DNA of 64,000 nucleotides from a virus, in IMG/VR virus record IMGVR_UViG_3300022699_000293, positions 23,131 through 87,130 of that record; one strand, written 5' to 3'. The translations under genes and the position numbers were made by a program. The notes beneath the pieces are model-generated. The model did not search any database. It was not told the origin of the DNA and saw nothing but the letters and a program-made list of their open reading frames with translations. Positions 1,331 to 28,980 of the stretch are shown here, in pieces (within the stretch, counting starts at the first letter, position 1; each line of letters starts with the position of its first letter).

Positions 1331-2359
1331 ATGGAAAATGAAGATACTTTTACAGATAGAGTTTTACAAAATTACTACAAAGATTTAAGCAGGAATTCAA
1401 TTTTATCTTCTGAGGAAGAACGGAATTTACTTCAACGCTACAACTTTTGTAGCAAATGTAAAACTCGGATTCCAAATCGTGTACAGCGTAAATATTGTAT
1501 CGAGTGTGGTACGCCCATACTTAATGTAGTAGAACACCACACAACCATCTGCAAGGTATGTCGTGCTAAATTTGATACCTTCTATACTCCTTCTTATTGT
1601 ATTCAATGTGGCCAACCTCGAGATCTAGCTGCTCGCGACGAATTAATTAAAGGTAATTTACGTTTTGTAGTCAAGATGGCTAAATCTATTACAAAAGATC
1701 CTTACCGTATTAAACAATTAACTTCTGCTGGAAATCTTGGTTTAATGACAGCTATAGATAAATTCGATGTTGAACAACCTACACGATTTCTAACATACGC
1801 GGCCCATTGGATACGTAAAGAAATGTTTGAAGAAATTCAAAATAGTGATTTAGTTCACATACCTTCGCACAAACAAAAAACACAGCGTAAAATTGCCAAA
1901 CATGGAATTTACGAGTGTGTACATTGTGGCCTTCAGATTGAAGAGAAACATCCTACTAAAAAATTACCTCCCTGTGTTGAGGAAAAACATGAATTTATCG
2001 AAACCAAAGAGACAGAAAATTTAAATACTGTAGTACCTTTAGAACCTAAGTTAACTTCTGTATTACCTGTCGAAGATCAAACTGAAGAAACTATAGTAGA
2101 CGTGTCTGCAGCAAATTTGTTAAGAAAAGTATTAAGCAAAGTTAAAGCTAGAGCACGAGATAAATTTATATTATTACAATATTATAACGTTCCAGAAGAG
2201 TCCCGACGCACTTCTTCTAAAAGTCTACATCAGCTTGCAATTTTAGCAGATATCACGCCTGAGCGTGTACGCCAGATTAAACAACGTCTTTTAAAAGAAG
2301 TGCGTGGGGAATTATGTCGGATGGCTATCACAGATATGGATGATATTTACGGTATATAA
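1331..2359 (+). CDS. Sigma-70-family RNA polymerase sigma factor with zinc-ribbon insertions
   Basis: Region 1.2 (YYKDL..ILSSEEE), region 2 (ARDELIKGNLRFVVKMAK..GNLGLMTAIDKFD..RFLTYAAHWIR), region 4 (ITPERVRQIK); five CxxC pairs inserted. Confidence 0.9.
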   Translation: MENEDTFTDRVLQNYYKDLSRNSILSSEEERNLLQRYNFCSKCKTRIPNRVQRKYCIECGTPILNVVEHHTTICKVCRAKFDTFYTPSYCIQCGQPRDLAARDELIKGNLRFVVKMAKSITKDPYRIKQLTSAGNLGLMTAIDKFDVEQPTRFLTYAAHWIRKEMFEEIQNSDLVHIPSHKQKTQRKIAKHGIYECVHCGLQIEEKHPTKKLPPCVEEKHEFIETKETENLNTVVPLEPKLTSVLPVEDQTEETIVDVSAANLLRKVLSKVKARARDKFILLQYYNVPEESRRTSSKSLHQLAILADITPERVRQIKQRLLKEVRGELCRMAITDMDDIYGI

Positions 2360-6753: not shown

Positions 6754-8820
6754 TTACGCATCCTCCTTTGTATCTTCTTGCAGTTCAATGATTCCCGCAC
6801 GTGTAGGTTGTTTTATTACATTTTTTTGTAAAATGCAATCATCACTCCAAGGTTCTATACCTTCTTTTAAACATTTAGAATATCGTGAACAAATTAAACA
6901 ATTGATATGTTGCGTTAGAGTGGATGCTATATCTTTTTTGGATCGCAAAGCACTTAATTGTTGTATTTCAACAGTGTGCCTCCCGCATAAGATATACACT
7001 ACGGTTTTTTCTTCCTGACCAATTCTATAATTACGATTTTGTGATTGTAACCAATTTTCTAATGACCAGTTACGTGAGTAGTAAATAGTATACTTAGCTG
7101 CTGTAAGAGTAATTGAAATACCTACAGATACTTGACCCAAAAATATGCGGCAACTTGGATCTGTTTGAAACGTTGATTCCATTAGATACATTTGACTTGT
7201 ATTTGTACCGTCAGCACGAACATACTTTAATTTTTTAGCTTGTAGTATTTTTTCTATATCGTCTAATTCAGCTATAAAATTAGCCCAAATAATAACTTTA
7301 TTGTTAGGGGCGTTAAGGAGATTGTCTAAAAATTCATTCAGGAATTCTAATTTAGGGTTAGGGGAATAGCGAACAATTTCTCTAGATTGTTGGGTTAGTT
7401 GTGTTTTATTGTACACACATTTAGATGATCCTGGTTGGGTACCTCGAGCTATGCATTGACGTAGATACGGACAATCATCACAAATGTCTGTAAGCTTATG
7501 AGTATCATAGTAAAAACCGCTACAAATCTGGAGAAGTTTAGACAAACAAATTGCATTATTTTGGATTTCTAAAGGATCGTGCAAATAACGAGTAATTGAC
7601 ATATCTGTTATAGCTTCGTTATAATCTTTACGCTGTTTTTGTGTCAAATCAAAATATAGAGGAACAAAAGTACGCTCAGGTAAGTCAACACAATCAGCCA
7701 ATTTTTTTTGGTCAGAAACCCAAGACACTAATCGGTTTAATTCATCTAGCTTCTTATACCCGACAACTATGGGTTTATTTTGATGTGCGTAAGCTATATG
7801 CTTACGACAAAATTTATCATATTGTGTAGGAAGTATATACGGAGCTAAAAACTTTAATTGAGGGTAAAGATCACGAGGATCTCCTAAACTTAGAGTACCG
7901 CTAAGTAAGTATCGACGAGAAAATTTAGCGGCAAGCCGCATACAAACCTTAGTTCGTTGACTTTCAATTGTTTTTATACGGTGGGACTCATCGGCTACTA
8001 TAATAGAAAATTCAGTTAACTGTGAAATCCATTGATATGAATCTCTTGTTAAATCTTTTACTTCTTCTTTAATGTCTTTAACTTCACGTCCTTTAATCCA
8101 ATCATCCATTAATTGCGTTTGTTTCTTAGGATCATTAACCATACGCAGTGCACGAGTTAGGGAAATAGGTTCTTCACGTTGCTTCTTTTCTAGTACCAAT
8201 TTTCGAGCTTGTCCAAAAACTGTAGGTATACCGTAACGACGTGCAGTATCATAAGATACTATTAGAAAATCTTTTTGAGCACAATTATTGAGTATTTTCA
8301 ATTTACGTTTGCGTGTTCCTGTCATGCCTACAGCTGAAAGAGTGCTATCAGTATGCTTTTCAACTTCTTTTAACCAGGTACCGATAGCTACAGGAGGACA
8401 AAGAACAAGAACTTTTTTACGGAGTAAATAAGCTAAATCGATTACAGGTTTAGTTTTTCCCGTACCCATTTCCCACTGCAAGATATACCTATAATTACAC
8501 AGAAGTCTACCTAACCCTTCAGACTGATGCTGATAACTTTTGTAAGAACCTGGCAATGTTACGTTTCGAGCATAGTCAAACCATTCTTCTTCCGTGTGTT
8601 GGTTATCTAAATAATTTTGAGCTTCTGGGGAAAAGTCCAAATGTTTGTAGACTTCTTCCAAATCGTGTAGTACTCTATCTAAAAATGGAGGAAATGCTGG
8701 GTAGCGCCAAAATTCTTTAGATTTATCCAAGGATGCTCCAAAAATTTTACTACCCAATGTTTTAGGATTTTTTGTTATGAATACAGGAAGTTTGTTGATA
8801 TATTCTAATTCAATTTTCAT
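6754..8820 (-). CDS. SNF2-family (SF2) helicase/ATPase
   Basis: EMGTGKT, DESH, LSGT and QSQNRNYRIGQ motifs; Cys-rich insertions; likely start ATG 8820. Confidence 0.9.
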   Translation of the reverse strand: MKIELEYINKLPVFITKNPKTLGSKIFGASLDKSKEFWRYPAFPPFLDRVLHDLEEVYKHLDFSPEAQNYLDNQHTEEEWFDYARNVTLPGSYKSYQHQSEGLGRLLCNYRYILQWEMGTGKTKPVIDLAYLLRKKVLVLCPPVAIGTWLKEVEKHTDSTLSAVGMTGTRKRKLKILNNCAQKDFLIVSYDTARRYGIPTVFGQARKLVLEKKQREEPISLTRALRMVNDPKKQTQLMDDWIKGREVKDIKEEVKDLTRDSYQWISQLTEFSIIVADESHRIKTIESQRTKVCMRLAAKFSRRYLLSGTLSLGDPRDLYPQLKFLAPYILPTQYDKFCRKHIAYAHQNKPIVVGYKKLDELNRLVSWVSDQKKLADCVDLPERTFVPLYFDLTQKQRKDYNEAITDMSITRYLHDPLEIQNNAICLSKLLQICSGFYYDTHKLTDICDDCPYLRQCIARGTQPGSSKCVYNKTQLTQQSREIVRYSPNPKLEFLNEFLDNLLNAPNNKVIIWANFIAELDDIEKILQAKKLKYVRADGTNTSQMYLMESTFQTDPSCRIFLGQVSVGISITLTAAKYTIYYSRNWSLENWLQSQNRNYRIGQEEKTVVYILCGRHTVEIQQLSALRSKKDIASTLTQHINCLICSRYSKCLKEGIEPWSDDCILQKNVIKQPTRAGIIELQEDTKEDA

Positions 8821-8873
8821 GAAATTTACCTTACACTTTGTTGAAGGTTGGATGGTTACAGGAGAGTAAGTAC

Positions 8874-10613
8874 ATGGCAAACGAATTTAATACTAGCGAT
8901 CCCTACTTGTTTACAGGTCGTCGCAATGTAGCGCCACATAGTAATCCTTATCACAGCTATACACAAGTTTTTAGTCCAAGACGTTTAAAAGACTTGTTTA
9001 AATGGTGTGAGTTTTTATTTGCTAATTCTGCCCATATCTATGCTGCTTTGCGGAAATTTGGGGAATACCCTATTACTGAAATTTTATACGAAACAAATAA
9101 TGAAACACTTAAAACCAAACATAAAAATATTTTAGAAAAAATTATACACATTCGTGAATTGCTTATTGAAATGACCTTAGATAAATACGTGTATGGGAAT
9201 GCTTTTCTTTCCATGTACCAACCATTTATCCGCTTTTTAAAATGTACTAAATGTCAAACATTGACGAACATTCAAAATGTTAAATATGAGTATAATTACC
9301 AAGCAATGAAGTTCACGTATGAGTGTCCTGCGTGTCATAAAAAAGTCGTTGCTACAGAAAAACATATTATAGATCGAAAAGTTTCGGTTAGTCGCAAAAT
9401 TAATTTTATTCGATGGGATCCTAAAAAAATAGATATCGACCATAACCCCCTAACAGGAGCTTCAGTTTATTATTACAATATTCCAGAATCTGTAAAAGAA
9501 AGCGTAAAAAAAGGACATAAGTTTTTAATAGACAGTATGCCTTTAGGCTTTTTGAAAGCAATAAAAGAAAAACAACAATTCAGATTTGCTCCTGGATATA
9601 TTTTTCATATGAAGATAGGAGGTCCCGCAGGTATTAATCCGCAATGGGGACTGCCTCCGTTACTTTCGACATTACAATTGTTCCATTATACCGCTATTTT
9701 AAGAAAAGCTAACGAAGCTATTTCTCTGGATTATTTAACTCCTCTTCGTATTGTCCACCCAGCACCGCAAAGTGGTAACGCAGATCCTGTCACTACAATT
9801 AGTTTACAAGAGTGGCAACAAAACTTAAAAGGAAATATAAAGGATTGGAGACAAGATCCTTTACATATGATGTTTGCACCTGTTCCTGTAGGAATGACGC
9901 AAGTAGGGGGACAAGGACGAGCATTATTAACTTTAGGAGAAGTGCAAGAAGCGGAAAAAAATATTGTAGCCGCTTTAGGAATTCCTCTAGAATTTCTTTA
10001 CGGAGGCTTAACGCGAAGTGGTATGGAAGCTACTTTAAGATTAATAGAGAATCAATTAGAGACACACATTAGTGATTTGAATGACTGCATACAATGGATA
10101 TCTGATAATTGTGCTAAGTTTTTGGGTTATGATAAAGTTTCTATGGAATTAGCCCCGTTCCGGATGATCGACGACCAAACACAAAAGAATATTTCGTTAC
10201 AATTATACCAAGCAGGACACCAACTAGGTCGGAAAATAATTTCGGAAAAAACCATAGCAGAACAGAACAACTTGGATTTAGACAAAGAAGAAGATCGCAT
10301 CAAACAAGAAGAGCTGGATGCTGTGCGGCGTGATGCAGAATTGCAAATCGAGATAAGTAAGCTACAAAACAACATGGCAAATCGAATTAGGCAAGAAACC
10401 CAACAAAGCGAAATGGCTATGGGTGGTGGTGGTGCTCCTACAGGTTATAACCAACAACAAGTAATTGCACAAGCTGATCAACTTGTAGCACAATGGGCAC
10501 AAATGGAAGAAGGGAGACGTAAAAGTATGATGGATTCTTTAATGAAAGAAGACTTCGTGTTGTACTCTGTAGCTATGCAACGTTGGGAAGACTTTGAACA
10601 ACAACAACAATAA
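8874..10613 (+). CDS. Probable portal protein with zinc-ribbon insertion
   Basis: YVYGNAF, WGLPPL and IVAALGIPLEFL motifs; position at the start of the structural region; SD aggag; CTKC..CPAC insert. Confidence 0.7.
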   Translation: MANEFNTSDPYLFTGRRNVAPHSNPYHSYTQVFSPRRLKDLFKWCEFLFANSAHIYAALRKFGEYPITEILYETNNETLKTKHKNILEKIIHIRELLIEMTLDKYVYGNAFLSMYQPFIRFLKCTKCQTLTNIQNVKYEYNYQAMKFTYECPACHKKVVATEKHIIDRKVSVSRKINFIRWDPKKIDIDHNPLTGASVYYYNIPESVKESVKKGHKFLIDSMPLGFLKAIKEKQQFRFAPGYIFHMKIGGPAGINPQWGLPPLLSTLQLFHYTAILRKANEAISLDYLTPLRIVHPAPQSGNADPVTTISLQEWQQNLKGNIKDWRQDPLHMMFAPVPVGMTQVGGQGRALLTLGEVQEAEKNIVAALGIPLEFLYGGLTRSGMEATLRLIENQLETHISDLNDCIQWISDNCAKFLGYDKVSMELAPFRMIDDQTQKNISLQLYQAGHQLGRKIISEKTIAEQNNLDLDKEEDRIKQEELDAVRRDAELQIEISKLQNNMANRIRQETQQSEMAMGGGGAPTGYNQQQVIAQADQLVAQWAQMEEGRRKSMMDSLMKEDFVLYSVAMQRWEDFEQQQQ

Positions 10614-10633
10614 TAAAGTTAAAAGGCAAGTAC

Positions 10634-11203
10634 ATGGTTAAGGACACACGACAAGATTCAACTTTTGCAACTTTGGTTCAATCAGCAAGAGACAAACCTC
10701 CTCGCATGTCTCAAGAAACAGAGATTCCTTCTTTATTTTCGCCACCATCCGACGATTCTTCAAAAGATTCGTTTGTAGCTAAAGAATTAACAAACAATAA
10801 ACCTGGACGACAAATACGTCTTGTAAGTTTTACGCGTACTTTTGTATTGTGGCGTCCTTGGGAAAAATGTTCTCGATGTTTGGAAATGTTAAAACAGGGA
10901 GAAATAGAATTACCTTCAATAGGGGATATGACTTGCCCCCATGTACAGCTTGCGGAGTATAAAGAAATTAAAGATGCTGTTCTCAGAGGTGACGGTATTA
11001 AAGAATTTGAAGAATACTTTCAATTACATGACGGTACTCGATGTGTTCAATTTTCTTGGTTGGAAGCTGATCCAGAATTTTTAGAAAAAATGAAAAAAGA
11101 AGCTCAAAAAAACAAGGATAGCGTGTACCCACCAAACCCTGAAAAAGTTTTTAACCAAAAAGAGGAGGAGACTCCGAATAATGATTCTGAAGTCTCCTCC
11201 TGA
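10634..11203 (+). CDS. Hypothetical protein (CxxC..CPH)
   Basis: 189-aa ORF downstream of the portal. Confidence 0.6.
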   Translation: MVKDTRQDSTFATLVQSARDKPPRMSQETEIPSLFSPPSDDSSKDSFVAKELTNNKPGRQIRLVSFTRTFVLWRPWEKCSRCLEMLKQGEIELPSIGDMTCPHVQLAEYKEIKDAVLRGDGIKEFEEYFQLHDGTRCVQFSWLEADPEFLEKMKKEAQKNKDSVYPPNPEKVFNQKEEETPNNDSEVSS

Positions 11204-11425
11204 CGGTTCTGGGGTGAGTTTGTCGACGGTTCTTAGGGATTTTTCAGACTACTTAAATAGTCTGAAGAATTCCCACAGGAGTTCGACAATCACCCCAGGC
11301 TTTTCGCCAGCATTCCCATTTTTATCCTCCTTGTAAAAAGCCGTCTACCGTCATCTTCTTTTACCAAAATGTCTTTTCGAATCTGAAAGAATGTTCTATA
11401 CTTGAACCGTTCAGAAGGAGAGCAA

Positions 11426-14400
11426 ATGCCTAAGCTAACACCTTTGATGATAGGTCCAGATCAACGTAGAACTCTTATTCACGAAAAAGTGAAAGAGGGT
11501 TTGAATGAATCATTTCCTATACAGTCTCGGAATAAGACATTGGAAGTGAAAGATCTTCGCATAATAAATAAAGACTATACGCCGACAGAACAGAAACGCG
11601 CAATTCTTTCTGGAGATTCTCTCTTTGAATCTGTTAAAGGAACTGTAAGTATAAAAGATAAGAAGGGTAAAATTTTAGATGAAGCCAAAAACTTTACTTT
11701 AGTCCGAATTCCTTATTTTACTCCTCGACATACTTTTATCATTGGGGGTAACGAACATTCTGTTTCTAATATGGTACGTCGTAAACCGGGAGTTTATTCT
11801 CGTAAAAGAGCTAATGGTATTTTAGAGGCAGGGTTTAACACCATCGGAGGATCTAATTTTCGAGTAAGCATGGATCCTTCTAAAGGACAGCCACAATTAG
11901 AATACGGGTCGACTAAAATTCCATTATATCCTATTTTACGTAAATCTGGAATTTCTCACGACAATATAGCTAAAGCGTGGGGGTCTAAATTAGCAGATAT
12001 TAATGAAAAAGAACTATCTTCTAAAACAGACAGATATATTGATAAGTTATATAACAAAGAAATTCCTCCTTATTTTAGAGACGAAACAAAAACTTCTCAG
12101 GAAAAAATGGAGGATATTTTAACACGTTATAAAGATGCTAAAATGGATCCTGAAGTTAATCAAAAAACTTTAGGACGTCCTCACACGCATGTTACTCCTG
12201 ACAGTTTGCTGGACGCGTCTACTCGTGTATTGAAAATATTTAACAAAGAAGAAGACGTGGACGATCAAGATAATTTGGGCTTTAAAACATTAATGTCTGT
12301 TGATGATTTTTTTAAAGAGCGTATAAAATTACACGCTAGAAACGTTGCTAATAAAACAGCGATAAAAATGGAAAGAACCCCGCAACTTAAGAAAGCATTA
12401 CCTCCAGGCCCATTTACAAAAGATCTGTTACAATTTATTTCTACTTCCTCTTTGTCTTCAATTCCAGATCAAACTAACCCTGTGGATTTGATTGACTCAG
12501 CTATGAGAGTAACGTCTTTAGGTGAAGGTGGAATCTCAACTGAACGTGCTATTCCTATCGAAGCTCGACAAACCCATGTAACTCAAATGGGTGCTTTAGA
12601 TCCTATTAGAACACCAGAATCTAGTCGTGCCGGTATTGATGTAAGAGCTGCAGTAACAGCTCAACGAGATGAAAATGGAGATATCTACGTTCCTGTTTAC
12701 GACGTAAAAAGTCAACGAGAAAAATACATTAAAGCAGGTCACCTCCAGGACTCTGTTGTAGCTTTTGCGAACCAACCCTTGAAAGGGTCTGTTGAGGCTG
12801 TCGCACGAGGTGTTGTTCGTCGTGTACCTGCACGAGAAGTAGACTACCAAATACCGCACCAATCTCGTTTATACAGTGCTACAACAAACTTAATTCCTTT
12901 TTTGGAATCGGCACAAGGCAATCGAGCTGTAATGGGTTCGAAAATGCAAGTGCAAGCGTTATCCTTGGTTAATCGTGACGCTCCTTATGTTCAAGTTGCG
13001 ACGCCTTCACAAAAATCTTTCGAACGAATGATAGGTAAGATTGTTAATCCCCATTCTCCAGTATCAGGCACTGTTAAAAAAATAGATAATGATTACATTT
13101 ACGTGTTGCCCGACCAAGAAAAACAAGCCGCAATTAACAAAGCTATTAAAATTCCTTATGACAATAATTTTCCGTTAGCTACCAAAACATATTTAAATCA
13201 TGATTTGTTTGTCAAACCTGGAGATAAAGTTAAGAAGGGTCAAACTTTAGGTACTTCTAATTTTACTAAAAATGGGGTTTTGGCACTAGGTAAGAACATG
13301 AGTGTTGCTTACATGCCGTATTACGGAAAAAATTCTAATGATGCGGTAGTGATTAGCGACAAAGCAGCAAAAAACTTAACGTCTGAACGTATGTATAAAA
13401 TCGTAGTACCTCAAGAACCCAACTTAACTTTAAACCAAAACAAACATAAAACGTATTACGGGCATAGATATAAAAAGGATCAATATAGAAGGTTAGACAA
13501 AGATGGAGTAATCGAAGCAGGTACTAAATTAACTCCACACGACCCATTGGTGGTAGGTGTTCGAAAAACTGAATTATCTCCGGATGACTTAATACTAGGA
13601 CGATTGCATCGTTCTCTTGCAAACCCTTACAAAGAATTTAAACACGAGTGGGATCACGATTATGAAGGAGAAGTTGTAGATGTAGTCAAAACACCTAAAC
13701 GTGTAACCATGACAGTTAAAACACGAGAACCTGCACGAATAGGAGACAAGTTAAGTGGGCGTTTTGGGAATAAGGGGGTTGTTTCTGAAATCATTCCTCA
13801 AGATGAAATGGTTAAGGATGAGGCTGGAAAGCCTATTGATATTATTATGACTTCCGCTGGTGTTGTGTCACGAATTAATCCTAGCCAAATTATAGAAACA
13901 GCGGTAGGGAAAGTTGCTGAAAAAACAGGAAAACCAATTATTGTAGATAACTTTACTAGAAAAGATAATGTTAAATGGGCAAGAAAATTATTAAAAGAAC
14001 ATGATTTAAAAGATAAGGAAACTGTTTACGATCCAAAATCAGGAAAAAAAATTCCTAACATTATGGTAGGTCGTCAATATCTTTATAAGTTATCTAAATC
14101 TACTGATACAAATTATAGTGCTCGAAGTATGGGTACTTATGACATGAATATGCAACCAACTCGGGGAGGAATTCAAGGAGCTAAGGCTTTAGGCAAAATG
14201 GAATTCGATGCTTTGCTAGGTCATAATGCACGCAATATTTTAAGAGAAGCTGCTACAGTTAAAAGTCAAAAGAATGATGAATTTTGGCGTGCTATTCAAC
14301 TAGGTCAAATGCCTCCTACACCAAAATCTATTTTTGCTTACGATAAATTTCTCAACATGTTGAAAGGTGCAGGTGTTCGCGTAGACCGCGAAGGTAGTAA

Positions 14401-15787
14401 AATGTCTTTAGCCCCCCTTACGGACAAAGATGTTACTGAAATGTCTTCCGGTGAAATCAAAGATGCTAAGATAGTACGCGCCAAGGATTTACGTCCGGAA
14501 ACCGGAGGTTTGTTTGATCCGGGAATAACTGGAGGTTTACGAGGAACTCGCTGGTCTCATATTTCTTTGGCTGAACCTATAATTAACCCTGTATTTAAAG
14601 AACCTGTTAGGCGGTTACTAGATATGTCTAACGCACAATTGACAGATACGCTAAAAACTAAAGGAGGAAATCATATTAAAAAAGAATTGGGTAAGATTGA
14701 TTTGGATGCTAAAGAAAAAGAGCTTAAACGACAATTAAAGAAAAAGAATCCAAGTCAAGTAGATAATTCTTTAAAACAAATAAAATACATACGCGCATTA
14801 AAAAAATTAAATTTAAAACCTGATGAAGCGTATACAATGACGAAAGTACCCGTTGTTCCGCCGGTGATTCGTCCTGTAGTACCCGGTAAAGGTGGGACAC
14901 AACTTGTTTACGGTGATGCCAATCCTTTATACCAAGATTTGATTTATATTAATAATCAAATGAAAGAAATAAAGGATCCTAAAAATCCTACACCTCCGGG
15001 TGAAGAAGAAAAACTTAGACCTTCATTGCAACAAGCTGTAGGCGCAGTTTATGGGACTGATGAGCCCGCCACAGCAAAATCTCGAGGACGAAAGCATAAA
15101 GGTTTTTTAACTTATATCTCGGGAGAGGGAGGACCAAAGCATGGATTTTTTCAATCAAAGTTGATGTCTCGAGCTCAAGATATGGCTGGGAGAGGAACAA
15201 TTGTTCCTGACAGTACTTTGGGAGTAGATGAGATTGGCGTACCTGAAGAAATGCTATGGACGATGTACCGAGATTTTATCATCAGGGGCTTAGTTCAAAA
15301 AGGTTTTCCGGCTATCCAAGCTCGTCAAATGGTGGAAGACAAACATCCAGCTGCAAAAGATACGCTAAACCGAATTATTAAGGAACGTCCTGTATTAATG
15401 AACCGCGCACCTACGTTACACAGGTACAACATTGTAGGAGCTAAACCTGTACCTGTACCAGGACGTACATTACGAGTTAATCCTTTTATAGAAGCGCATA
15501 TGAATGCAGATTATGACGGAGATGCAATGACCCTACATGTTCCCATCTCGCCTGCTGCTGTTAAAGAAGCGGAGGATATTACGCTTTCTAAACTTTTATA
15601 CGGGGATAAAACCAAAAATGACTTATTAGTTTTCCCACAGCACGAAGCGATAATGGGGATACACCAAGCTAGTGGCGCGGACGATAAGAATACAATACCT
15701 AAAAAATTTAAAAATCAGGGTGAAGCAATAGCAGCTTACAAACGTGGAGAAATTGGACTAGGAACTCGGGTAACTATTGGAAATTAA
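11426..15787 (+). CDS. Phage multisubunit RNA polymerase: beta subunit fused to the N-terminal (catalytic) half of beta'
   Basis: Beta motifs TPES..G, NRAVMGSKMQ.QA, GDKLSGRFGNKGVVS; beta' motifs GGLFD, HISLAEP, PVVPP..RP, NRAPTLHR, catalytic NADYDGD; SD gaaggag. Confidence 0.92.
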   Translation: MPKLTPLMIGPDQRRTLIHEKVKEGLNESFPIQSRNKTLEVKDLRIINKDYTPTEQKRAILSGDSLFESVKGTVSIKDKKGKILDEAKNFTLVRIPYFTPRHTFIIGGNEHSVSNMVRRKPGVYSRKRANGILEAGFNTIGGSNFRVSMDPSKGQPQLEYGSTKIPLYPILRKSGISHDNIAKAWGSKLADINEKELSSKTDRYIDKLYNKEIPPYFRDETKTSQEKMEDILTRYKDAKMDPEVNQKTLGRPHTHVTPDSLLDASTRVLKIFNKEEDVDDQDNLGFKTLMSVDDFFKERIKLHARNVANKTAIKMERTPQLKKALPPGPFTKDLLQFISTSSLSSIPDQTNPVDLIDSAMRVTSLGEGGISTERAIPIEARQTHVTQMGALDPIRTPESSRAGIDVRAAVTAQRDENGDIYVPVYDVKSQREKYIKAGHLQDSVVAFANQPLKGSVEAVARGVVRRVPAREVDYQIPHQSRLYSATTNLIPFLESAQGNRAVMGSKMQVQALSLVNRDAPYVQVATPSQKSFERMIGKIVNPHSPVSGTVKKIDNDYIYVLPDQEKQAAINKAIKIPYDNNFPLATKTYLNHDLFVKPGDKVKKGQTLGTSNFTKNGVLALGKNMSVAYMPYYGKNSNDAVVISDKAAKNLTSERMYKIVVPQEPNLTLNQNKHKTYYGHRYKKDQYRRLDKDGVIEAGTKLTPHDPLVVGVRKTELSPDDLILGRLHRSLANPYKEFKHEWDHDYEGEVVDVVKTPKRVTMTVKTREPARIGDKLSGRFGNKGVVSEIIPQDEMVKDEAGKPIDIIMTSAGVVSRINPSQIIETAVGKVAEKTGKPIIVDNFTRKDNVKWARKLLKEHDLKDKETVYDPKSGKKIPNIMVGRQYLYKLSKSTDTNYSARSMGTYDMNMQPTRGGIQGAKALGKMEFDALLGHNARNILREAATVKSQKNDEFWRAIQLGQMPPTPKSIFAYDKFLNMLKGAGVRVDREGSKMSLAPLTDKDVTEMSSGEIKDAKIVRAKDLRPETGGLFDPGITGGLRGTRWSHISLAEPIINPVFKEPVRRLLDMSNAQLTDTLKTKGGNHIKKELGKIDLDAKEKELKRQLKKKNPSQVDNSLKQIKYIRALKKLNLKPDEAYTMTKVPVVPPVIRPVVPGKGGTQLVYGDANPLYQDLIYINNQMKEIKDPKNPTPPGEEEKLRPSLQQAVGAVYGTDEPATAKSRGRKHKGFLTYISGEGGPKHGFFQSKLMSRAQDMAGRGTIVPDSTLGVDEIGVPEEMLWTMYRDFIIRGLVQKGFPAIQARQMVEDKHPAAKDTLNRIIKERPVLMNRAPTLHRYNIVGAKPVPVPGRTLRVNPFIEAHMNADYDGDAMTLHVPISPAAVKEAEDITLSKLLYGDKTKNDLLVFPQHEAIMGIHQASGADDKNTIPKKFKNQGEAIAAYKRGEIGLGTRVTIGN

Positions 15788-17377
15788 ATGACTCATTCTT
15801 CACCAGCGCAGCGTACTGCAGCCTGGGCTAATCGGAAATACCCAGATGTAGAAAACTTGAATACTGTTTTAGTAGATAGTCCAAGTACTAGCCTACGAAT
15901 GACAAAAAAAGATGTATTAGATTATTATACAACACCAGAGGTGCAACGTAACTTGTTGCCCCAATTACGTCAAAAAGATTTAATTGCCTTAGTTGCTAGA
16001 GATCCTAACAATCCAATAATCAGAAGGTATCGTAGAAGAAAGGAACCTGTCCGCATATCTGATAAAAAAGACTTAGATTGGTATGCCAAGCGCAGATATG
16101 TTGAATTTCACCCAACGTTAAAATCCAAATCTAAAGAGTTGTGGGTAGACTTGGATGCGGGTAAGAATGTAGGTATCGACGAAATAAAACCTGCAGTTAA
16201 AGATGTACAAAAAGCTGTTTCTAAAATCCCCAACATTAAAAAAACGGACATAACATTTTCTGGTGGTCGAGGTTTTCATGTTCGAGGAGAGTTAAATAAA
16301 GAACAAAGAACAAGTTCCTTAGAAAAAGTTATCAAACGCGTTATGGCTCGTTTGGCACGACGAAATAAACGTTACACTACACGCCCTCCCAAAACCAATG
16401 AAATTCGTCTTGACACTTCTACGTTTCACGAACGAGGTTCAATACGCGCTCCTTTTTCACTTAATCAAAAAACAGGATTAGTTTCAGTTCCTGTAAAAAA
16501 TAATCATTTAAAATCTTTTGATCCTATTGCTCATGCTAACCCTTGGGCAGTGATTGCTGAATTACGACGTAAAAAGAAAACTTCGCGTGAATTTGCTCCA
16601 GGCATTCCCGAAAATAGAGCTATTAAATCTTTACCTAGCTTTAAACAACCTAAATCGTGGATTATGTCTGTTCAAGAGCATGACGCAAAAAAAGCAGGAA
16701 AACATTACGATTTACGTTTAGTGGATCCTTGGAGTGACTACGCTCACTCTTGGGCAATCCCTAAAAGTAAACTACCTCGAGCAGGAGAAAAACCTGTTCT
16801 AGCAATCCAAACTCCTACACATACATCGAACTATGCATTAACCTTTGGAGCTAAAAAACCTGAGCATATTGCCAAGGGCTACGGAGCAGGCACAGTACAA
16901 ATAAAACATAAGGAACCTGTACAATTAACTTCTTCTCCAGATTTTATTAAATTCAAAAGACAAAAAGGTCGTGGCCAAGAAGAAAATTTTGTGCTATTCC
17001 GAACTAAAGGAGATTCTTGGTTATTACGTAATGTGACAAAATCGGGAACAGTAAAGGAAGCTGTAATGAGTTCTTTATATTGGAATGGATTTGAAGAAAC
17101 GCTACAAAAATTAGGTATGTCTAATGAAGTGCGTGCGGCTATAAAACAACGTGGTCAATCGGAAAATATGCAACAATCTTTAGAAACAGAAGATCAAGGA
17201 TTACCTTCTGCGGCTTTAGCTAAACAACTACAGAAATTACCTGTACCTGAAATTGTACACAAAAATAAAGGACAAGATAGCGTTGAAAATAGACTAAATA
17301 GATCTGTATCTTGGGGACCTAAACAAGAAATTTCACATGAAGTTGCTACGGGACCTTCCCCGATAATGGGAATTTAA
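15788..17377 (+). CDS. LigD-like protein: AEP primase-polymerase domain, 3'-phosphoesterase domain and C-terminal tail
   Basis: VEFH, VDLD, FSGGRGFHV, RAPFS (LigD-Pol); VQEHDA..HYDLRL..SWAIPK..LAIQT..H..Y..F..GYGAG.V (LigD-PE); no ligase domain. Confidence 0.85.
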   Translation: MTHSSPAQRTAAWANRKYPDVENLNTVLVDSPSTSLRMTKKDVLDYYTTPEVQRNLLPQLRQKDLIALVARDPNNPIIRRYRRRKEPVRISDKKDLDWYAKRRYVEFHPTLKSKSKELWVDLDAGKNVGIDEIKPAVKDVQKAVSKIPNIKKTDITFSGGRGFHVRGELNKEQRTSSLEKVIKRVMARLARRNKRYTTRPPKTNEIRLDTSTFHERGSIRAPFSLNQKTGLVSVPVKNNHLKSFDPIAHANPWAVIAELRRKKKTSREFAPGIPENRAIKSLPSFKQPKSWIMSVQEHDAKKAGKHYDLRLVDPWSDYAHSWAIPKSKLPRAGEKPVLAIQTPTHTSNYALTFGAKKPEHIAKGYGAGTVQIKHKEPVQLTSSPDFIKFKRQKGRGQEENFVLFRTKGDSWLLRNVTKSGTVKEAVMSSLYWNGFEETLQKLGMSNEVRAAIKQRGQSENMQQSLETEDQGLPSAALAKQLQKLPVPEIVHKNKGQDSVENRLNRSVSWGPKQEISHEVATGPSPIMGI

Positions 17378-17378
17378 T

Positions 17379-19175
17379 ATGACTACACAAACTTTTGGGC
17401 GATACTTACTTAACCAACATATTCCTAAAGATTATCAATTGTCGGGAGAATCTGGGAAAAAAGAATTACGTACCAAAATGAACGCATTGGCAAAAAAAGA
17501 TCCGGTGGCTTATGTGAAAACAATTACAGATCTTAAGCGTGAAGGTGATTTCTTAGCTACAATGTCGGGACTTTCTGTGGGCTTGGATGATATTTCACCG
17601 GCACCGACACGCGATGAAGTATTGAAACCTTTGGTATCTGCTTTTAATCGCGCACAAACAGATAAACAAAGACGGCGTATTGCCGAACAAGCACAGGAAA
17701 AATTACTCAGTACTGTATCCAAACATCCAGGATCCATGACACAACAAGTAAAAAGTGGGGCTCGAGGAAAACCTGTACAGTATATGAAAATTGTCGCATC
17801 TCCTGCTGCAGCTAGAGATTCTTACGGATATACAGAACCTTGGTTGATTACTCGGTCATATGCCGAAGGTTTACGCCCTTCTGATTATTGGGTTGCGGGT
17901 AACGAAGCTATCTTAGACACTATCAAAAGCACTGTTTCAGTGTCTGAACCAGGGGAATTGACTAAAGTCCTTATGAGTAATATGGCAGATACGCTTGTAA
18001 TTGAAATTGATTGCGGCACACATAATGGTATTTCCTTAAATGTTAGTGACTCTAATATTTTAGACAGGTACTTGGCTCGAGATACCGGACGCTTTAAGCG
18101 TAATACTTTAATTACATCACAAGTACAAACGGCTTTAAAAAAAGCAGGAAAACAAAAAATCCTGGTACGTTCTCCTATGACTTGTGAGTCTGATGATGGA
18201 GTTTGTCAGAAATGCCAAGGGTTGGATGAGAAAGGTAATCCTCAAGAATTGGGTGTGAACGTTGGTGTGCGTGCAGCTTCTGCGTTAGGGGAACCTTTAA
18301 GTCAATTTGCCTTGGATGCTAAGCACGGAGTACGTACGGCTAAAGGAGATCGTGCTAGATTGCAAGGAGTTTCTGGCTTTCGTCAAATAATAGAATCGCC
18401 ACAACAATTTTTAAACAAAGCAACTCTTGCGGAACACGGCGGGAATGTAGATAAGATTGAAACTGCTCCTCAGGGAGGTCATTTCGTATACGTGAATGCT
18501 AAAAAACATTTTGTACCTCCTAATTTACAAGTAACAGCAAAAAAGGGGGATTCCATAGAACCAGGAGATTCTCTTAGTGAAGGCATTCCCAAACCTGATG
18601 AAATAGTTCGTTACAAAGGACTCGGTGCAGGACGGCAGTATCTTGTAAATACTTTGCGTGATTTGTATGCTAATCAAGGACGAGACTTAGATCAGAGACA
18701 TTTTGAATTATTAGCAAAGAACGAATTGAACCATGTGCGCGTTTTAGAAGATCCAGGTAACAATTTTTTAAAAGGAGACGTGGTATCTTATAATGCTCTT
18801 CGATCTACATTAGCTAAACAATCAAAAGAAATACCTATTAACGAGTCGTTAGGGCAAGTATTAGGAAAACCTTACTTTCATTTTTCTGTAGGTCAGCGTA
18901 TTACTCCAGCAGTTCTTCACTATTTAAAGAAAGAAGGTTTGAAATCTGTACTCATTGCTTCAAAAGCACCTAATGTAGAATTTATTATGAAACCTGCAAC
19001 ACGCGCACCCTTGTTAAACCCTGATTGGATGGCTCGATTAGGTCACAGGTACTTAAAAACAACTCTAAAGGAAGCTGCTCATTTTGGGGATATTTCTAAT
19101 TTACAAGGTACCCACCCTGTTCCTGCTTACGCTGCTGGCGTAAACTTTGGTCAGGGAAAACAAGGACGCTATTAG
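17379..19175 (+). CDS. RNA polymerase beta' C-terminal half
   Basis: SGARG, SYAEGL, DCGT, RSPMTC..GVCQKC, GVRAASALGEPLSQ..KHG (trigger-loop region), RHFE, LKEAA. Confidence 0.9.
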   Translation: MTTQTFGRYLLNQHIPKDYQLSGESGKKELRTKMNALAKKDPVAYVKTITDLKREGDFLATMSGLSVGLDDISPAPTRDEVLKPLVSAFNRAQTDKQRRRIAEQAQEKLLSTVSKHPGSMTQQVKSGARGKPVQYMKIVASPAAARDSYGYTEPWLITRSYAEGLRPSDYWVAGNEAILDTIKSTVSVSEPGELTKVLMSNMADTLVIEIDCGTHNGISLNVSDSNILDRYLARDTGRFKRNTLITSQVQTALKKAGKQKILVRSPMTCESDDGVCQKCQGLDEKGNPQELGVNVGVRAASALGEPLSQFALDAKHGVRTAKGDRARLQGVSGFRQIIESPQQFLNKATLAEHGGNVDKIETAPQGGHFVYVNAKKHFVPPNLQVTAKKGDSIEPGDSLSEGIPKPDEIVRYKGLGAGRQYLVNTLRDLYANQGRDLDQRHFELLAKNELNHVRVLEDPGNNFLKGDVVSYNALRSTLAKQSKEIPINESLGQVLGKPYFHFSVGQRITPAVLHYLKKEGLKSVLIASKAPNVEFIMKPATRAPLLNPDWMARLGHRYLKTTLKEAAHFGDISNLQGTHPVPAYAAGVNFGQGKQGRY

Positions 19176-19182
19176 GAATAAA

Positions 19183-19686
19183 ATGGATTACGATTTTTAT
19201 AAGTTAGGATGGGATGCAGCACTTGTAGACTTAGGCTTATGTAAAGAAGCTGCGTGGCCTAAAAGTTTAGCACGTGTGGGGAAATTTTTAAAAAGTAAGG
19301 TTCCTTCTAAAGCAGGTGTAAAAAAATTTTTTATAGGCAGTCCTAGACGTTTTATGCATGAATTTCGCAGTAAAAAATTATTGCAACCTGGAAGTACTTT
19401 GCGTGAGGGTTACAGAGCACGCAGTCCTCTGGAAAAAGCGCTGCTTTACGGTTTTCCATTGTACGAGGGAGGCCGTATTTTAACAGGAGACCCTGGACAA
19501 AGAGCTGAAAATATAGGAGGATTGCTGGGAGGTATGACTCTTGGTTTGGGTGCGTGGGGGCCTTCAGGTATGTTAGGCTCCATAGCTGCAGGTAGCTTGG
19601 GAGACTATTTAGGAAGAGGACTTGCCCGAACAGCTAAACATTCTTTGGGAGTAACCCCCGACGTAACGAATATATACAAAAAATAA
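19183..19686 (+). CDS. Glycine-zipper putative internal virion protein with KxA leader
   Basis: FYKLGWDAALVDLGLCKEAA leader; C-terminal GxxxG repeats. Confidence 0.55.
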   Translation: MDYDFYKLGWDAALVDLGLCKEAAWPKSLARVGKFLKSKVPSKAGVKKFFIGSPRRFMHEFRSKKLLQPGSTLREGYRARSPLEKALLYGFPLYEGGRILTGDPGQRAENIGGLLGGMTLGLGAWGPSGMLGSIAAGSLGDYLGRGLARTAKHSLGVTPDVTNIYKK

Positions 19687-19752
19687 AATTAAATCTTGGT
19701 AATTTTCACCGAATGCCATATACTTGGCGTGAACACTTTGGAGGTAAATAAA

Positions 19753-20196
19753 ATGGATACAGCAACAGCTAACGCATTAATCAAAGCCGCTTATGCCGAA
19801 GGCGTGAAACAAGCATTAACTGAGCGTGGATTAGACGAAAAAACAGCGTCTATTCGAAGTGAAGTGTTTACAGAAGAAAAATTTGCCGGTATTGCAGATG
19901 TCGGACAAGCTATTCGAAGCGGTCTTGGTCGCGCTGGGCAAGCTGTAGGCGGGGCTGCTAGCCGTGCTGGGCAAGCTGTAGGCGGGGCTGCTAGCCGTGC
20001 TGGGCAAGCTGTAGGCGGGGCTGCTAGGTCTGCAAAAGAAACCGCAAGCATCCCTATTGAAAATTTGAAGCTTCTACGTGAAACCAATCCGGAAGCCTTT
20101 AATGCTCTTATGGGTGGTGGTATCATCGGTGGTGGTGCAGGTTTAGGTGCTGGAATTGGTGGGACGTTGGGTACTCAAGCTCTTTTAGAAGATTGA
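19753..20196 (+). CDS. Glycine-zipper putative internal virion protein with 11-aa repeats
   Basis: SD ggagg; AYAEGVKQAL..KTAS leader; (RAGQAVGGAAS)x3; Gly-rich C-terminus. Confidence 0.6.
   Translation: MDTATANALIKAAYAEGVKQALTERGLDEKTASIRSEVFTEEKFAGIADVGQAIRSGLGRAGQAVGGAASRAGQAVGGAASRAGQAVGGAARSAKETASIPIENLKLLRETNPEAFNALMGGGIIGGGAGLGAGIGGTLGTQALLED
19930..20027 (+). repeat. 33-bp tandem repeat x3 (coding)
   Basis: cgtgctgggcaagctgtaggcggggctgctagc repeated almost perfectly three times. Confidence 0.95.
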
Positions 20197-26898: not shown

Positions 26899-28980
26899 AT
26901 GCTTTCAAAAATATTACATTTAGATTCGCATTTCCCTACAGGCGAGTTAACAGTACAGCCTGTATTTTTGTGGGCTAATGGAAAAGCATGTCTTGAAAAT
27001 ATAAGCAAGTATGCAAGTGTGGGTCACGATTACTTCAAAACAATTGAACCTATTCCCGGACACTCCGTTGTTTATGTTCTTGCTGTTAGTGGTTGGGAAA
27101 CTTACGGAGAAAATAAAAATGGGGACGGTTTTCCTGAATTCCCATATAAAGAAGATTCTTCTCCACCATGGATTGCTCCTGATGAAGTTCTTCCGTTACA
27201 TTATAAATCTTTTGAAAAACACGGAAATAACTTTCGACATCATCAAAATAAAGATCCTAAAAAAGCTGTAGGGAAAGTTATAAAATCTTTTTGGAATCCT
27301 ACAATGCACCGAGTTGAACTTCTAATTGATTTAGAAGATGAAAAAGCTCCAGATTTAGCGGAAAGAATTGCTTCCGGTGAATTCCCTCCTGTTAGTATGG
27401 GAACTCGAGTTAGGTACGATGTTTGTAACATTTGCGGTAATCGCGCACCTACTCGTGCTCAATATTGTGACCATCTTAAATTTCAAATGAAGCAGACACT
27501 ACCAGACGGTAGAACTATTTGTGCTTTAAACCCTAATCCTAAATTTTTTGATATTAGTTGGGTTTTTAAACCAGCAGACCCGACAGCGTATATGCTAAAA
27601 AAAGTAGCTGATAACGAACCTTATGAGTTGTCAGGTGCAGCTGCAGGAGAGTACTTAGACAAGATGGCGGAACGAAAATTAGCCGCTAAAAAATTAGCTG
27701 TAATTGACAAACTTATTCAAGGTTATCCTCTAGACGCTAAATGCGAAGGATTTAATCCCTCCGATATACATAACATTCAAGCTATAAGAGATCTTGTTCT
27801 ATCCGTAGTAGACGACATTCCTGAATTCTCAGACGATACTTTGAAAGAATTGTCGATCCACCCTCTTAACAAAATTTTTTCTACTTTGTTTTCAGGAGGA
27901 ATTTCTCTTTCTACTCCGGAGTTAGTAAAAATAATCGTCTATAAAAATTATCCTAATACGGAAATAGGGGATGATATTTTAGACAAGTGCGTTATTATGC
28001 AACAACCTTTAAGGGAATTTATTGAAGATTGTCCCCAAATTATGGATCAGTTTGAAAAAGATGGGTACTTTGACTTAGGTATCGATAAAGTAGATACCAA
28101 AATAGCTTCAATTGTTGATCCTTATTTTGAAAAACGTTCTGGTATTCCTCAATATTTAAAACGACAATTTGTACCTTCAAAATATCGAGATGTGCCTGAG
28201 CCTAAAACAACACCTCTTACCGTTAGTGATCCAGTTACAGGAACTCGATACCAAACTACACGAGGTGCTGCTCTAACGGCACATGACGAAATAGCTAAAA
28301 AGAATTTAATGAAAGTTTTGGGGGGTGCTGCTTTGTTGGGCGGTGCTTATAAGTTACTTGGAACAGGTTTAGAGCATATAGGGAAACGAAAATTAAAACC
28401 ACTATTAGGGTTATCTTTAGCAGGTTTAGGTGTTAGTCAGTGGCCTGATATGGGTCCGCATTACAGGACAGACCAAGGCGTTCCTGTGCCGACATTGACT
28501 GAAATGGTACCTAAGCAGGCAGCTATAACATCTTCTTTAGCATTGCCTGCTTTAGGTACTTTAGCAGCTATGACTGCTTTGGGCTTAGACTATAAATCTC
28601 GATTACGGCGAGGAGAACCTATAGGGCATCCTGCATTACCTTTATCTCGACGACTATTGGATAGGGTTGAACGTTTTACTTATGAGCACCCTGTAGTTAC
28701 TGCTATTGGTGGAACAGCTGCCTTGAAAGGTCTTGGAAAAATTCCTCTTGTGCAGAAAGGTATGGGTTATGCCGGACGTGCAGGAGAATATGCAAAAAGA
28801 AAAGCTCAAGATGCTGCTTCAAATGTGCGCGATGCTTTTCGTACTATGGCTCGGGAACGTGTAAAAGTATCTGAACTTCTCGAACCAGATTTACCAACAC
28901 CTACAGGTACAGTAGAATTGCCCCCTATAGATTTGGATAAAATAGCTACAAAAATTGGTTATCTAATTTGGGAAGGCTAA
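26899..28980 (+). CDS. Probable prohead (capsid maturation) protease with Zn finger and long C-terminal extension
   Basis: NKNGDGF, HHQNK..AVGKV (His), VSMG (Ser), CNICGN..CDH, FFDISWV..PAD, resembling HK97/herpes-fold phage proteases; upstream of scaffold and capsid genes. Confidence 0.7.
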   Translation: MLSKILHLDSHFPTGELTVQPVFLWANGKACLENISKYASVGHDYFKTIEPIPGHSVVYVLAVSGWETYGENKNGDGFPEFPYKEDSSPPWIAPDEVLPLHYKSFEKHGNNFRHHQNKDPKKAVGKVIKSFWNPTMHRVELLIDLEDEKAPDLAERIASGEFPPVSMGTRVRYDVCNICGNRAPTRAQYCDHLKFQMKQTLPDGRTICALNPNPKFFDISWVFKPADPTAYMLKKVADNEPYELSGAAAGEYLDKMAERKLAAKKLAVIDKLIQGYPLDAKCEGFNPSDIHNIQAIRDLVLSVVDDIPEFSDDTLKELSIHPLNKIFSTLFSGGISLSTPELVKIIVYKNYPNTEIGDDILDKCVIMQQPLREFIEDCPQIMDQFEKDGYFDLGIDKVDTKIASIVDPYFEKRSGIPQYLKRQFVPSKYRDVPEPKTTPLTVSDPVTGTRYQTTRGAALTAHDEIAKKNLMKVLGGAALLGGAYKLLGTGLEHIGKRKLKPLLGLSLAGLGVSQWPDMGPHYRTDQGVPVPTLTEMVPKQAAITSSLALPALGTLAAMTALGLDYKSRLRRGEPIGHPALPLSRRLLDRVERFTYEHPVVTAIGGTAALKGLGKIPLVQKGMGYAGRAGEYAKRKAQDAASNVRDAFRTMARERVKVSELLEPDLPTPTGTVELPPIDLDKIATKIGYLIWEG

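Follow-up and report, generated by a model that had tools for sequence, protein, structure and literature searches.

A phage RNA polymerase core in two chains, with beta fused to the N-terminal half of beta′ and the C-terminal half encoded apart

Introduction

How could a phage come to encode an RNA polymerase (RNAP) core in which beta and beta′ are joined in one chain while beta′ is itself divided in two? This question is raised by positions 11,426 to 19,175 of a 64,000-nucleotide stretch of viral DNA, positions 23,131 to 87,130 of IMG/VR record IMGVR_UViG_3300022699_000293, which we refer to as the window. The window covers 64 kb of a viral contig in IMG/VR that is 87 kb long and estimated to be 49% complete, implying a complete phage of ~180 kb. 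A preliminary description, made from the letters alone, proposed a beta subunit fused to the N-terminal half of beta′ (beta′N), a separate C-terminal half (beta′C), an altered active-site loop and packaging of the enzyme in the virion. Here, we put at roughly three in four the probability that the block encodes the phage's own, and apparently only, RNAP core in two chains, along the lines of the model set out in the Discussion.

The RNAP gene block

Three tightly packed plus-strand genes occupy the block, named here after their products.

11426..15787, plus strand: P0001 gene, fused beta–beta′N chain of 1453 amino acids (aa), by Pfam, phmmer against the PDB and homology to gp206 of Salmonella phage Arash
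15788..17377, plus strand: P0002 gene, LigD-like primase-polymerase (PrimPol) plus 3′-phosphoesterase, 529 aa, by Pfam LigD_Prim-Pol and LigD_N
17379..19175, plus strand: P0003 gene, C-terminal half of beta′, 598 aa, by Pfam Rpb1_5

The open frame of P0001 ends at 15787 and begins at 11402, or at 11426 if counted from an ATG with a GGAG Shine-Dalgarno (SD) sequence 6-11 nt upstream; the latter start gives the 1453-aa chain and an N-terminus that agrees with the homologues. P0002 begins on the base directly after the P0001 stop (TAA-ATG), and one base separates its own stop from the P0003 start (TAA-T-ATG). The block is probably one operon, because an Rfam scan of 10500-19800 returned no RNA family and no intron, and scans inside the block for consensus sigma-70 promoters and terminators gave counts at or below chance. 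The two RNAP genes are not adjacent, since the 529-aa LigD-like gene, which the preliminary description left out, lies between them. Its product is a ligase-less LigD-like protein, translationally coupled between the RNAP genes.

A beta subunit complete end to end, fused to beta′N

The Pfam domains of P0001 follow the order Rpb2_3 and Rpb2_6 of beta (Rpb2_6, E = 1.3e-49), then Rpb1_1 and Rpb1_2 of beta′ (Rpb1_2, E = 4.8e-25), all above the Pfam cut-offs, and phmmer against the PDB matched the chain both to bacterial beta (3.5e-71) and to beta′ (2.8e-47). The proposed fusion of beta to beta′N in a single 1453-aa chain is thereby borne out. The chain divides as follows.

11426..14395, plus strand: beta module, aa 1-990, by alignments to E. 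coli and cyanobacterial beta
12443..12523, plus strand: equivalent of the rifampicin pocket (E. coli beta cluster I), by alignment to E. coli beta
14375..14416, plus strand: beta/beta′ fusion junction, ~aa 990/991, where the beta and beta′ alignments end
14396..15784, plus strand: beta′ N-terminal half, aa 991-1453, with clamp, clamp helices and catalytic double-psi beta-barrel (DPBB), by alignments and NCBIfam
14504..14560, plus strand: scar where the N-terminal Zn-binding domain of beta′ has been lost, by alignment and lack of Cys
15503..15523, plus strand: NADYDGD catalytic Mg loop, aa 1360-1366, a DxDGD metal loop read from the sequence

Within the beta module, aa 19-986 align to residues 27-1056 of the 1104 of cyanobacterial beta (E 3.5e-71, solved structures), and BLASTP against E. 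coli K-12 beta pairs 256-753 with beta 420-931 and 731-989 with beta 1014-1340 of 1342. The active-site lysines of the beta barrel (GDK...GNKG) lie at aa 773-784. Beta had been described as shortened; it is indeed smaller, but it is complete end to end, and what is lost consists mostly of lineage-specific inserts (nothing corresponds to E. coli beta 934-1037 or to most of 194-353). In the rifampicin-pocket equivalent D516 and R529 are kept, while Q513, H526 and S531 of E. coli beta are replaced by Ser, Ser and Thr; judged by the known rifampicin-resistance positions, the window polymerase is predicted to be insensitive to rifampicin.

The junction can be placed almost to the residue. Residue 1340 of E. 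coli beta matches P0001 aa 989, residue 2 of the beta′ of Rhizobium phage RHph_TM30 matches aa 992, and P0001 992-1433 aligns from there along this unsplit beta′. Since beta reaches its natural end at ~aa 990 and beta′ begins at the next residue, the fusion is, by alignment, end to end and linker-less. The same junction is kept in 50/50 aligned homologues and also in the single-chain relatives described below.

Downstream of the junction, P0001 1080-1451 corresponds to E. coli beta′ 181-550 by BLASTP, 1079-1451 aligns to the beta′ of solved structures, and the half covers positions 161-533 of 1147 in the NCBIfam model rpoC_TIGR and 181-551 of 619 in rpoC1_cyan. The N-terminal beta′ Zn ribbon is missing, as had been suspected: E. 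coli beta′ 76-97 (CxC...CxxC) has no counterpart, and the remaining segment, GGLFDPGITGGLRGTRWSH, contains no Cys. This scar is Cys-free in split and single-chain relatives alike. The Tyr noted in the catalytic loop is likewise real and clade-wide, DYDGD being found in 49/50 close homologues. The chain also has the NRAPTLHR motif, and its C-terminal ...RV.IG end is conserved in the alignment of 50 homologues.

The separate C-terminal half and the split point

P0003 supplies what P0001 lacks of beta′. It has Pfam Rpb1_5 (E = 9.5e-16) and contains the second Zn site as well as the bridge helix, the trigger loop and the C-terminal clamp, which agrees with the earlier proposal of a separate 598-aa beta′C gene.

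17886..17984, plus strand: bridge-helix region, its position read from the sequence within the stretch aligned to E. coli beta′ 573-936
18012..18215, plus strand: second Zn site, Cys212, 269, 276 and 279 of P0003, the sole four Cys of either chain
18288..18329, plus strand: N-arm of the trigger loop, conserved His kept, GEP...KHG aligned with the E. coli trigger loop

BLASTP pairs P0003 5-316 with E. coli beta′ 573-936 and 376-475 with 1187-1286, SI3 being absent; against rpoC_TIGR (NCBIfam) the chain covers positions 549-1068, and it is 30.6% identical to Arash gp216. P0001 contains no cysteine and P0003 exactly four, the ligands of Zn site II, whose equivalents are invariant in seven single-chain relatives. 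Across the two chains the catalytic signatures are all intact.

Mapping of the fusion and split points, one of the checks proposed at the outset, places the split opposite E. coli beta′ ~551-572, just past the catalytic barrel by alignment, and the junction at ~aa 990/991. The split falls where a hairpin (E. coli beta′ ~515-572) ends, and several single-chain forms do without this hairpin. Because this hairpin varies in length and can be missing altogether, the split site is, as the sequences indicate, a permissive one. Separately, some beta′C chains have a C-terminal extension of ~400-500 aa (P0125, 1096 aa; P0124, 1040 aa; and similar); that of P0125 includes a GNAT acetyltransferase domain.

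Relatives and the origin of the split

By tblastn, the 1453-aa chain is matched unbroken along its full length, at 35% identity, both by Salmonella phage Arash (gp206, 1525 aa) and by Vibrio phage D69, and a separate beta′C gene is present in each (gp216, 606 aa, in Arash). More than 120 protein clusters (90% identity), on contigs of up to ~196 kb, have the beta and beta′N domains and no Rpb1_5. A single metagenomic contig invites the suspicion that the fusion and split are an assembly or frameshift artefact, or that host rpoBC has contaminated the sample. The same junction and split recur, however, in two cultured-phage groups and in the >120 independent clusters, and this recurrence excludes an assembly or frameshift error; the scores lie far below every bacterial equivalog cut-off in NCBIfam (beta, 355 versus 896 bits; beta′, 236 and 185 versus 963.5 bits), and the flanking genes are phage genes. 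We regard an artefact of any of these kinds as vanishingly improbable.

An exhaustive search with P0003 returned 1150 representatives at E<1e-30, including proteins of ~2010-2565 aa that match P0003 over their last ~600 residues. One of these, P0163 (2042 aa), has Rpb2_3, Rpb2_6, Rpb1_2 and Rpb1_5 in one chain. A search of IMG/VR with P0163 as a single protein gave no match, and an alignment of seven single-chain proteins used as the query recovered at least 491 IMG/VR stretches. We analyzed the best 80 of these at least 491, classing the open reading frames (ORFs) of each locus by BLASTP against the beta, beta′N and beta′C pieces of the window. Among these 80, a single ORF of 1993-2304 aa contains all three pieces in 70 complete loci, in three further loci the single-chain ORF is broken solely by in-frame TGA, and the split form is confined to the window's near relatives (L004-L011). 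The preliminary description had missed this single-chain beta–beta′ family as the parent of the split form.

The interrupting TGAs are at L071:10167, L083:9048 and 10860, and L091:10050. Two of the four fall in near-invariant Trp columns (77/82 and 80/82), which suggests that TGA encodes Trp (code 4) in the sister phages L071 and L083.

A phylogeny had also been proposed as a check. We computed it with FastTree from an FFT-NS-2 alignment of 82 concatenated sequences and 2001 columns, with E. coli as the outgroup. The eight split rows (window, L004, L005, L008, L009, L010, Arash and D69) form one clade with support 100, which is sister to the single-chain pair L057/L059 and nested in the single-chain radiation, so that one state change suffices. 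On this tree the split is derived from the single-chain form and occurred once, a polarity that rests mainly on parsimony: because the two genes are separate and undivided in bacteria and fused in every phage member, a fusion followed by one later split requires fewer events than the reverse order. The metal loop has Tyr in 8/8 split forms and in 2/70 fused rows (SLDYDGD), the latter taken to be the sister pair L057/L059, and NADFDGD is found in 59/70 single-chain forms. P0001 and P0003 share with the single-chain proteins the linker-less junction, the Zn-ribbon deletion and homology over the full length, and the window enzyme is a two-chain member of a very large, undescribed phage family with beta and beta′ in one chain. 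In the open-access literature we found no description of a fused phage beta–beta′ family or of its split offshoot.

The gap between the halves and mobile DNA

The LigD-like gene fills the whole gap between the two RNAP genes of the window. The corresponding slot in L010 holds a LigD-like gene 41% identical to P0002, the only direct comparison; in L007 and L009 it holds ORFs of 496-528 aa that were counted as the same gene, which is kept in the slot in relatives down to 57% RNAP identity. Neither Arash nor D69 has the gene in this slot. The Arash gap contains ten genes on both strands and sets the halves 4.8 kb apart, and that of D69 contains two small ORFs.

Several members of the family carry other insertions. 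In Vibrio phage D181 (L097 3501-9015) small ORFs and a gene for a homing endonuclease cut the beta–beta′N gene at ~aa 514. No such cut occurs in the sister phage D69, and because a homing endonuclease interrupts the D181 gene, mobile DNA evidently does fragment RNAP genes of this kind. Inteins (LAGLIDADG/Intein_splicing) are frequent in the fused chain (P0007, P0008, P0022, P0045 and others); at L004:1708-7728 the insert lies within the catalytic NADYDG|D loop, and P0168 has an intein in a single-chain form.

The inteins and the interrupted D181 gene also lend some color to the idea that the halves are rejoined into one chain, whether by RNA splicing, with the LigD-like gene inside an intron, or by a split intein. 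Several observations speak against it. The LigD-like ORF occupies the gap completely, to the base, and so leaves no room for an intron core, in line with the absence of any Rfam intron from the scanned region. The P0001 C-terminus and P0003 N-terminus align flush with the continuous single-chain sequence and carry no spare intein halves, and in Arash opposite-strand genes lie between the two halves. Rejoining is therefore very improbable, and we continue with a core that stays in two chains.

Other subunits, sigma factor and a promoter-like element

The alpha models PF01000 and PF01193 had no match in the window contig, which is only ~49% complete, in two further partial contigs, in Arash or in D69, and PF01000 alone had none in five single-chain genomes that are 93-100% complete. 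The omega model PF01192 had no match in the window contig, Arash, D69 or two complete single-chain genomes. The alpha and omega models each matched 14/14 control genomes. Each genome has a single Rpb1_2 locus and thus one polymerase set. Two features upstream of the block bear on how this core would find its promoters.

1331..2359, plus strand: sigma-70-family factor of the phage, 342 aa, with a double zinc ribbon in its N-terminal part, by Pfam, PHROG and NCBIfam
11397..11404, plus strand: TATACTTG, a promoter-like (-10-like) element that precedes the start codon of the RNAP gene by 22 nt, by copy counts and conservation

The sigma factor matches Pfam Sigma70_r2 and DZR, phrog_351 over aa 94-326 and RpoD_Cterm over positions 1-227 of 238, with regions 2-4 present and the double zinc ribbon ahead of them at aa ~33-97. 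An ORF with Sigma70_r2 is found in 5/5 split-type records tested, and Arash has two. The promoter-like motif that had been noticed ahead of the RNAP genes holds up as a conserved TATACTT element ~22 nt upstream. The window contains eight copies of TATACTTG, all on the plus strand, versus 2.4 expected, a count that 0/100 shuffles reached; several sit immediately upstream of SD-ATG pairs. CTATACTT precedes the RNAP gene by the same distance in L004, L005, L008 and L010, which are 57-78% identical and have diverged in the flanks. These observations are consistent with the TATACTT element serving the phage holoenzyme as a -10-like promoter element.

Head-gene context and probable virion packaging

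The RNAP genes had been placed inside the head-gene block, and they do lie just after a portal homologue. The portal gene and the loop discussed below are located as follows.

8838..10613, plus strand: homologue of the annotated Arash portal gp204 (30% identity, E 4e-97), encoded two genes before the RNAP gene
13118..13132, plus strand: EKQAA, in a surface loop where Rpb2_6 begins, the loop being variable by alignment of homologues

The order portal, small gene, RNAP is common to the window and Arash. A gene for an SNF2-family helicase lies at 6754-8880 on the minus strand, between the sigma and portal genes, and helicases are encoded in the corresponding region of Arash; jumbo-phage RNAPs have been linked to a Swi2/Snf2 helicase (PMC7824862).

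In the Arash particle proteome, gp206 gave 3516 spectra, the most of any protein and above the major capsid protein, with 1210 spectra for gp216 and 467 for the sigma factor gp10 (PMC10585845). That proteome comprises 116 proteins, ribonucleotide reductases among them, and its authors allow for carry-over of abundant proteins (PMC10585845). Because of this caution about abundant non-structural proteins, we rate packaging of the window RNAP in the virion, which had been suggested from gene position, as likely but unproven; its support is indirect, through the virion data for Arash homologues that are 31-35% identical.

Alternatively, the enzyme may be real but made after infection, as a middle or late polymerase, leaving the early genes to the host enzyme. 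In favor of a non-virion enzyme are the inclusiveness of the Arash proteome and the fact that the window phage itself is known from genes alone, and the phage sigma could in principle serve the host core too. It is harder to reconcile with a gp206 count above that of the major capsid protein, with the detection of gp216 and sigma in the same particles, with an RNAP gene that follows the portal in both phages, and with a single RNAP set per genome. We consider a non-virion role possible and rather unlikely, and retain packaging as the likely reading.

The preliminary description further took EKQAA as a site at which a packaged polymerase is matured by the prohead protease, cleavage being of the K-x-A type. 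A protein with a protease domain is indeed encoded in the window (26899-28980), and K-x-[AGS]-A is fairly conserved at the C-terminal edge of the loop in the close subclade (K in 42/48, A in 36/48), and in relatives it persists after the insert of an inorganic-pyrophosphatase (InPase) domain. The loop varies in length, however, and is absent in Arash and D69, the sole relatives with virion data; in half of the relatives G takes the place of A or S at +2; and a cut would land inside the Rpb2_6 domain of beta. Nor is K-x-A enriched, with 13 occurrences in P0001 versus 9.3 expected (p ~0.12) and 3 in P0003 versus 3.8. Cleavage at EKQAA thus appears improbable.

The 693-aa product of 26899-28980 has its head-maturation-protease-like domain at aa ~99-236 (phrog_18299) and is far longer than usual prohead proteases. 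In P0091, P0092 and P0100 (aa ~590-820), one or two InPase (PF18823) domains are inserted exactly at the loop equivalent to EKQAA, which marks the loop as a hot spot for insertions and also speaks against a maturation site there. Such an insert makes an RNA polymerase with a built-in pyrophosphatase, and it occurs in many clusters that are 55-58% identical to P0001.

Discussion

The model that we propose for the window begins with an ancestral single-chain enzyme. In this enzyme the covalent beta–beta′ link would take over the role of alpha-dimer as assembly platform. The gene would then have been cut once, by an insertion of foreign DNA, in the variable surface hairpin after the beta′ barrel, and the gap would now be filled by different genes in different lineages, a LigD-like gene in the window. 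The two chains would reassemble non-covalently, as engineered and natural splits of beta′ near this site do. RNAP is said to tolerate both a beta–beta′ tether and splits of beta′ (Severinov and co-workers, 1996-97). Together with the phage sigma, the core would transcribe from phage promoters, the TATACTT element being an example, and it may travel in the capsid and enter the cell along with the DNA, starting transcription independently of the host enzyme. Such a polymerase would probably be insensitive to rifampicin.

Several points weigh against this reading. For the window phage the model is drawn from its genes, and the carry-over allowed for in the Arash proteome tells against the packaging step. 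The trigger-loop equivalent of E. coli R933 is Asp in P0003. The tree is rooted on one long-branched outgroup, E. coli, and was built with FastTree only. A highly diverged alpha- or omega-like subunit could escape the Pfam models, a small omega especially. Lastly, Sigma70_r2 was detected in only 2/5 complete fused-type genomes.

We give about as much credence as doubt to a broader picture, in which the window represents the two-chain offshoot of an undescribed and very abundant family of minimal RNAPs that lack alpha and omega, use a phage sigma, are packed in the capsid and injected, act independently of the host and are remodelled by mobile DNA. The remodelling would comprise the one split after the beta′ barrel, inteins in the catalytic loop, cuts by homing endonucleases and the grafted pyrophosphatase domain. 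If this is true, the family would hold the simplest known sigma-dependent RNAP of the cellular type, with a core of one or two genes plus one sigma gene and no assembly platform. It would bear on how large subunits assemble without alpha and on how often subunits fuse and divide in an otherwise rigid enzyme. The place at which jumbo phages and cyanobacteria divide beta′ may be permissive in general, and the family would bear on this question too. Cultured members (Arash, D69, D148 and D181) make biochemistry, cryo-electron microscopy and infection under rifampicin feasible now, and a compact, orthogonal, sigma-dependent polymerase could serve as a tool.

Comparison with known systems

Compared with the bacterial core, the window enzyme has no detectable alpha platform or omega and lacks the N-terminal Zn-binding domain of beta′. 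The sigma-70-family factor of a bacterial holoenzyme has its counterpart in the 342-aa ORF, whose binding to the core is putative. The RpoBC proteins of Helicobacter and Wolbachia (NF007172, NF011417) have an end-to-end beta–beta′ fusion as in the window, but they are cellular proteins of ~2840-2890 aa with an intact beta′ and Zn ribbon, and with alpha and omega. Against these models the window scores 369 versus a cut-off of 5372 bits and 321 versus 4632 bits, and its beta′C is separate, which places it outside their class. Because its scores are far below all bacterial equivalog cut-offs, the fusion in the window is independent of theirs.

The RpoC1 (gamma) and RpoC2 of cyanobacteria and plastids also divide beta′ between two genes downstream of the catalytic barrel. 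These enzymes differ in having a separate beta, alpha and omega, and a large RpoC2 insertion. The cyanobacterial split had been called similar; it is near, but not at the same site. P0001 ends at position ~551-556 of gamma profiles of 619-626 positions, and gamma runs ~65 positions further within the same inter-domain region. When the first 80 aa of P0003 were searched against the PDB, no cyanobacterial or plastid chain appeared among the matches listed. The likeness drawn to archaea fails, since the A′/A″ split lies far downstream.

Among phages, the tailed and uncultured members of the mReC group also encode a beta and a beta′ of bacterial-like type (Weinheimer and Aylward 2020, PMC7481178). 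In the part of their table considered here, every phage row lists separate beta and beta′ proteins of ~900-1520 aa, and the word 'fused' is used only for crAss-like phages (PMC7481178).

RNAPs of the phiKZ/AR9 type, including those of RP13 and IME392, resemble that of the window in being phage-encoded, without alpha or omega, and split in beta′ just after the barrel. For phiKZ and AR9 a virion-packaged form of RNAP is known. The statement that phiKZ-like RNAPs are split differently holds for beta; for beta′, the beta′C chains of AR9, RP13 and IME392 start within a few tens of residues of that of the window. By BLASTP, residue 23 of RP13 matches residue 18 of P0003, 37 of IME392 matches 5, and 182 of AR9 matches 101. 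The ends of the PHROG profiles agree with a beta′ split of the phiKZ/AR9 type near that of the window, and the jumbo-phage split has been placed after the DPBB barrel (Sokolova 2020). These enzymes differ from the window's in having beta in two or three pieces that are never fused to beta′, two paralogous sets (virion and non-virion) and no sigma-70 homologue; the window has an intact fused beta, one Rpb1_2 locus and an encoded sigma. They are also far more diverged from bacterial enzymes (PHROG E of 1e-24, versus 1e-71 for the window's match to bacterial beta).

The closest systems are those of the family itself. The single-chain relatives (~1990-2190 aa; P0163 and loci L017-L096), from phage genomes of ~160-210 kb, share the junction, the Zn-ribbon deletion and homology along the full length, and no alpha was found in the five checked; unlike the window, they have a continuous beta′ and mostly NADFDGD. 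The RNAPs of Arash (OQ632216) and D69 are only 31-35% identical to that of the window, have other genes in the gap, with no LigD-like gene there, and lack the EKQAA loop. The Arash paper labels the genes simply beta and beta′, with no mention of a fusion or split (PMC10585845). Both phages nevertheless resemble the window in the AADYDGD loop, the missing Zn ribbon, the order portal, small gene, RNAP, a sigma of their own and the lack of alpha and omega. Together with Vibrio phages D148 and D181, they have the same two-chain topology and the same fusion junction, and their split lies within ~3 residues of that in the window.

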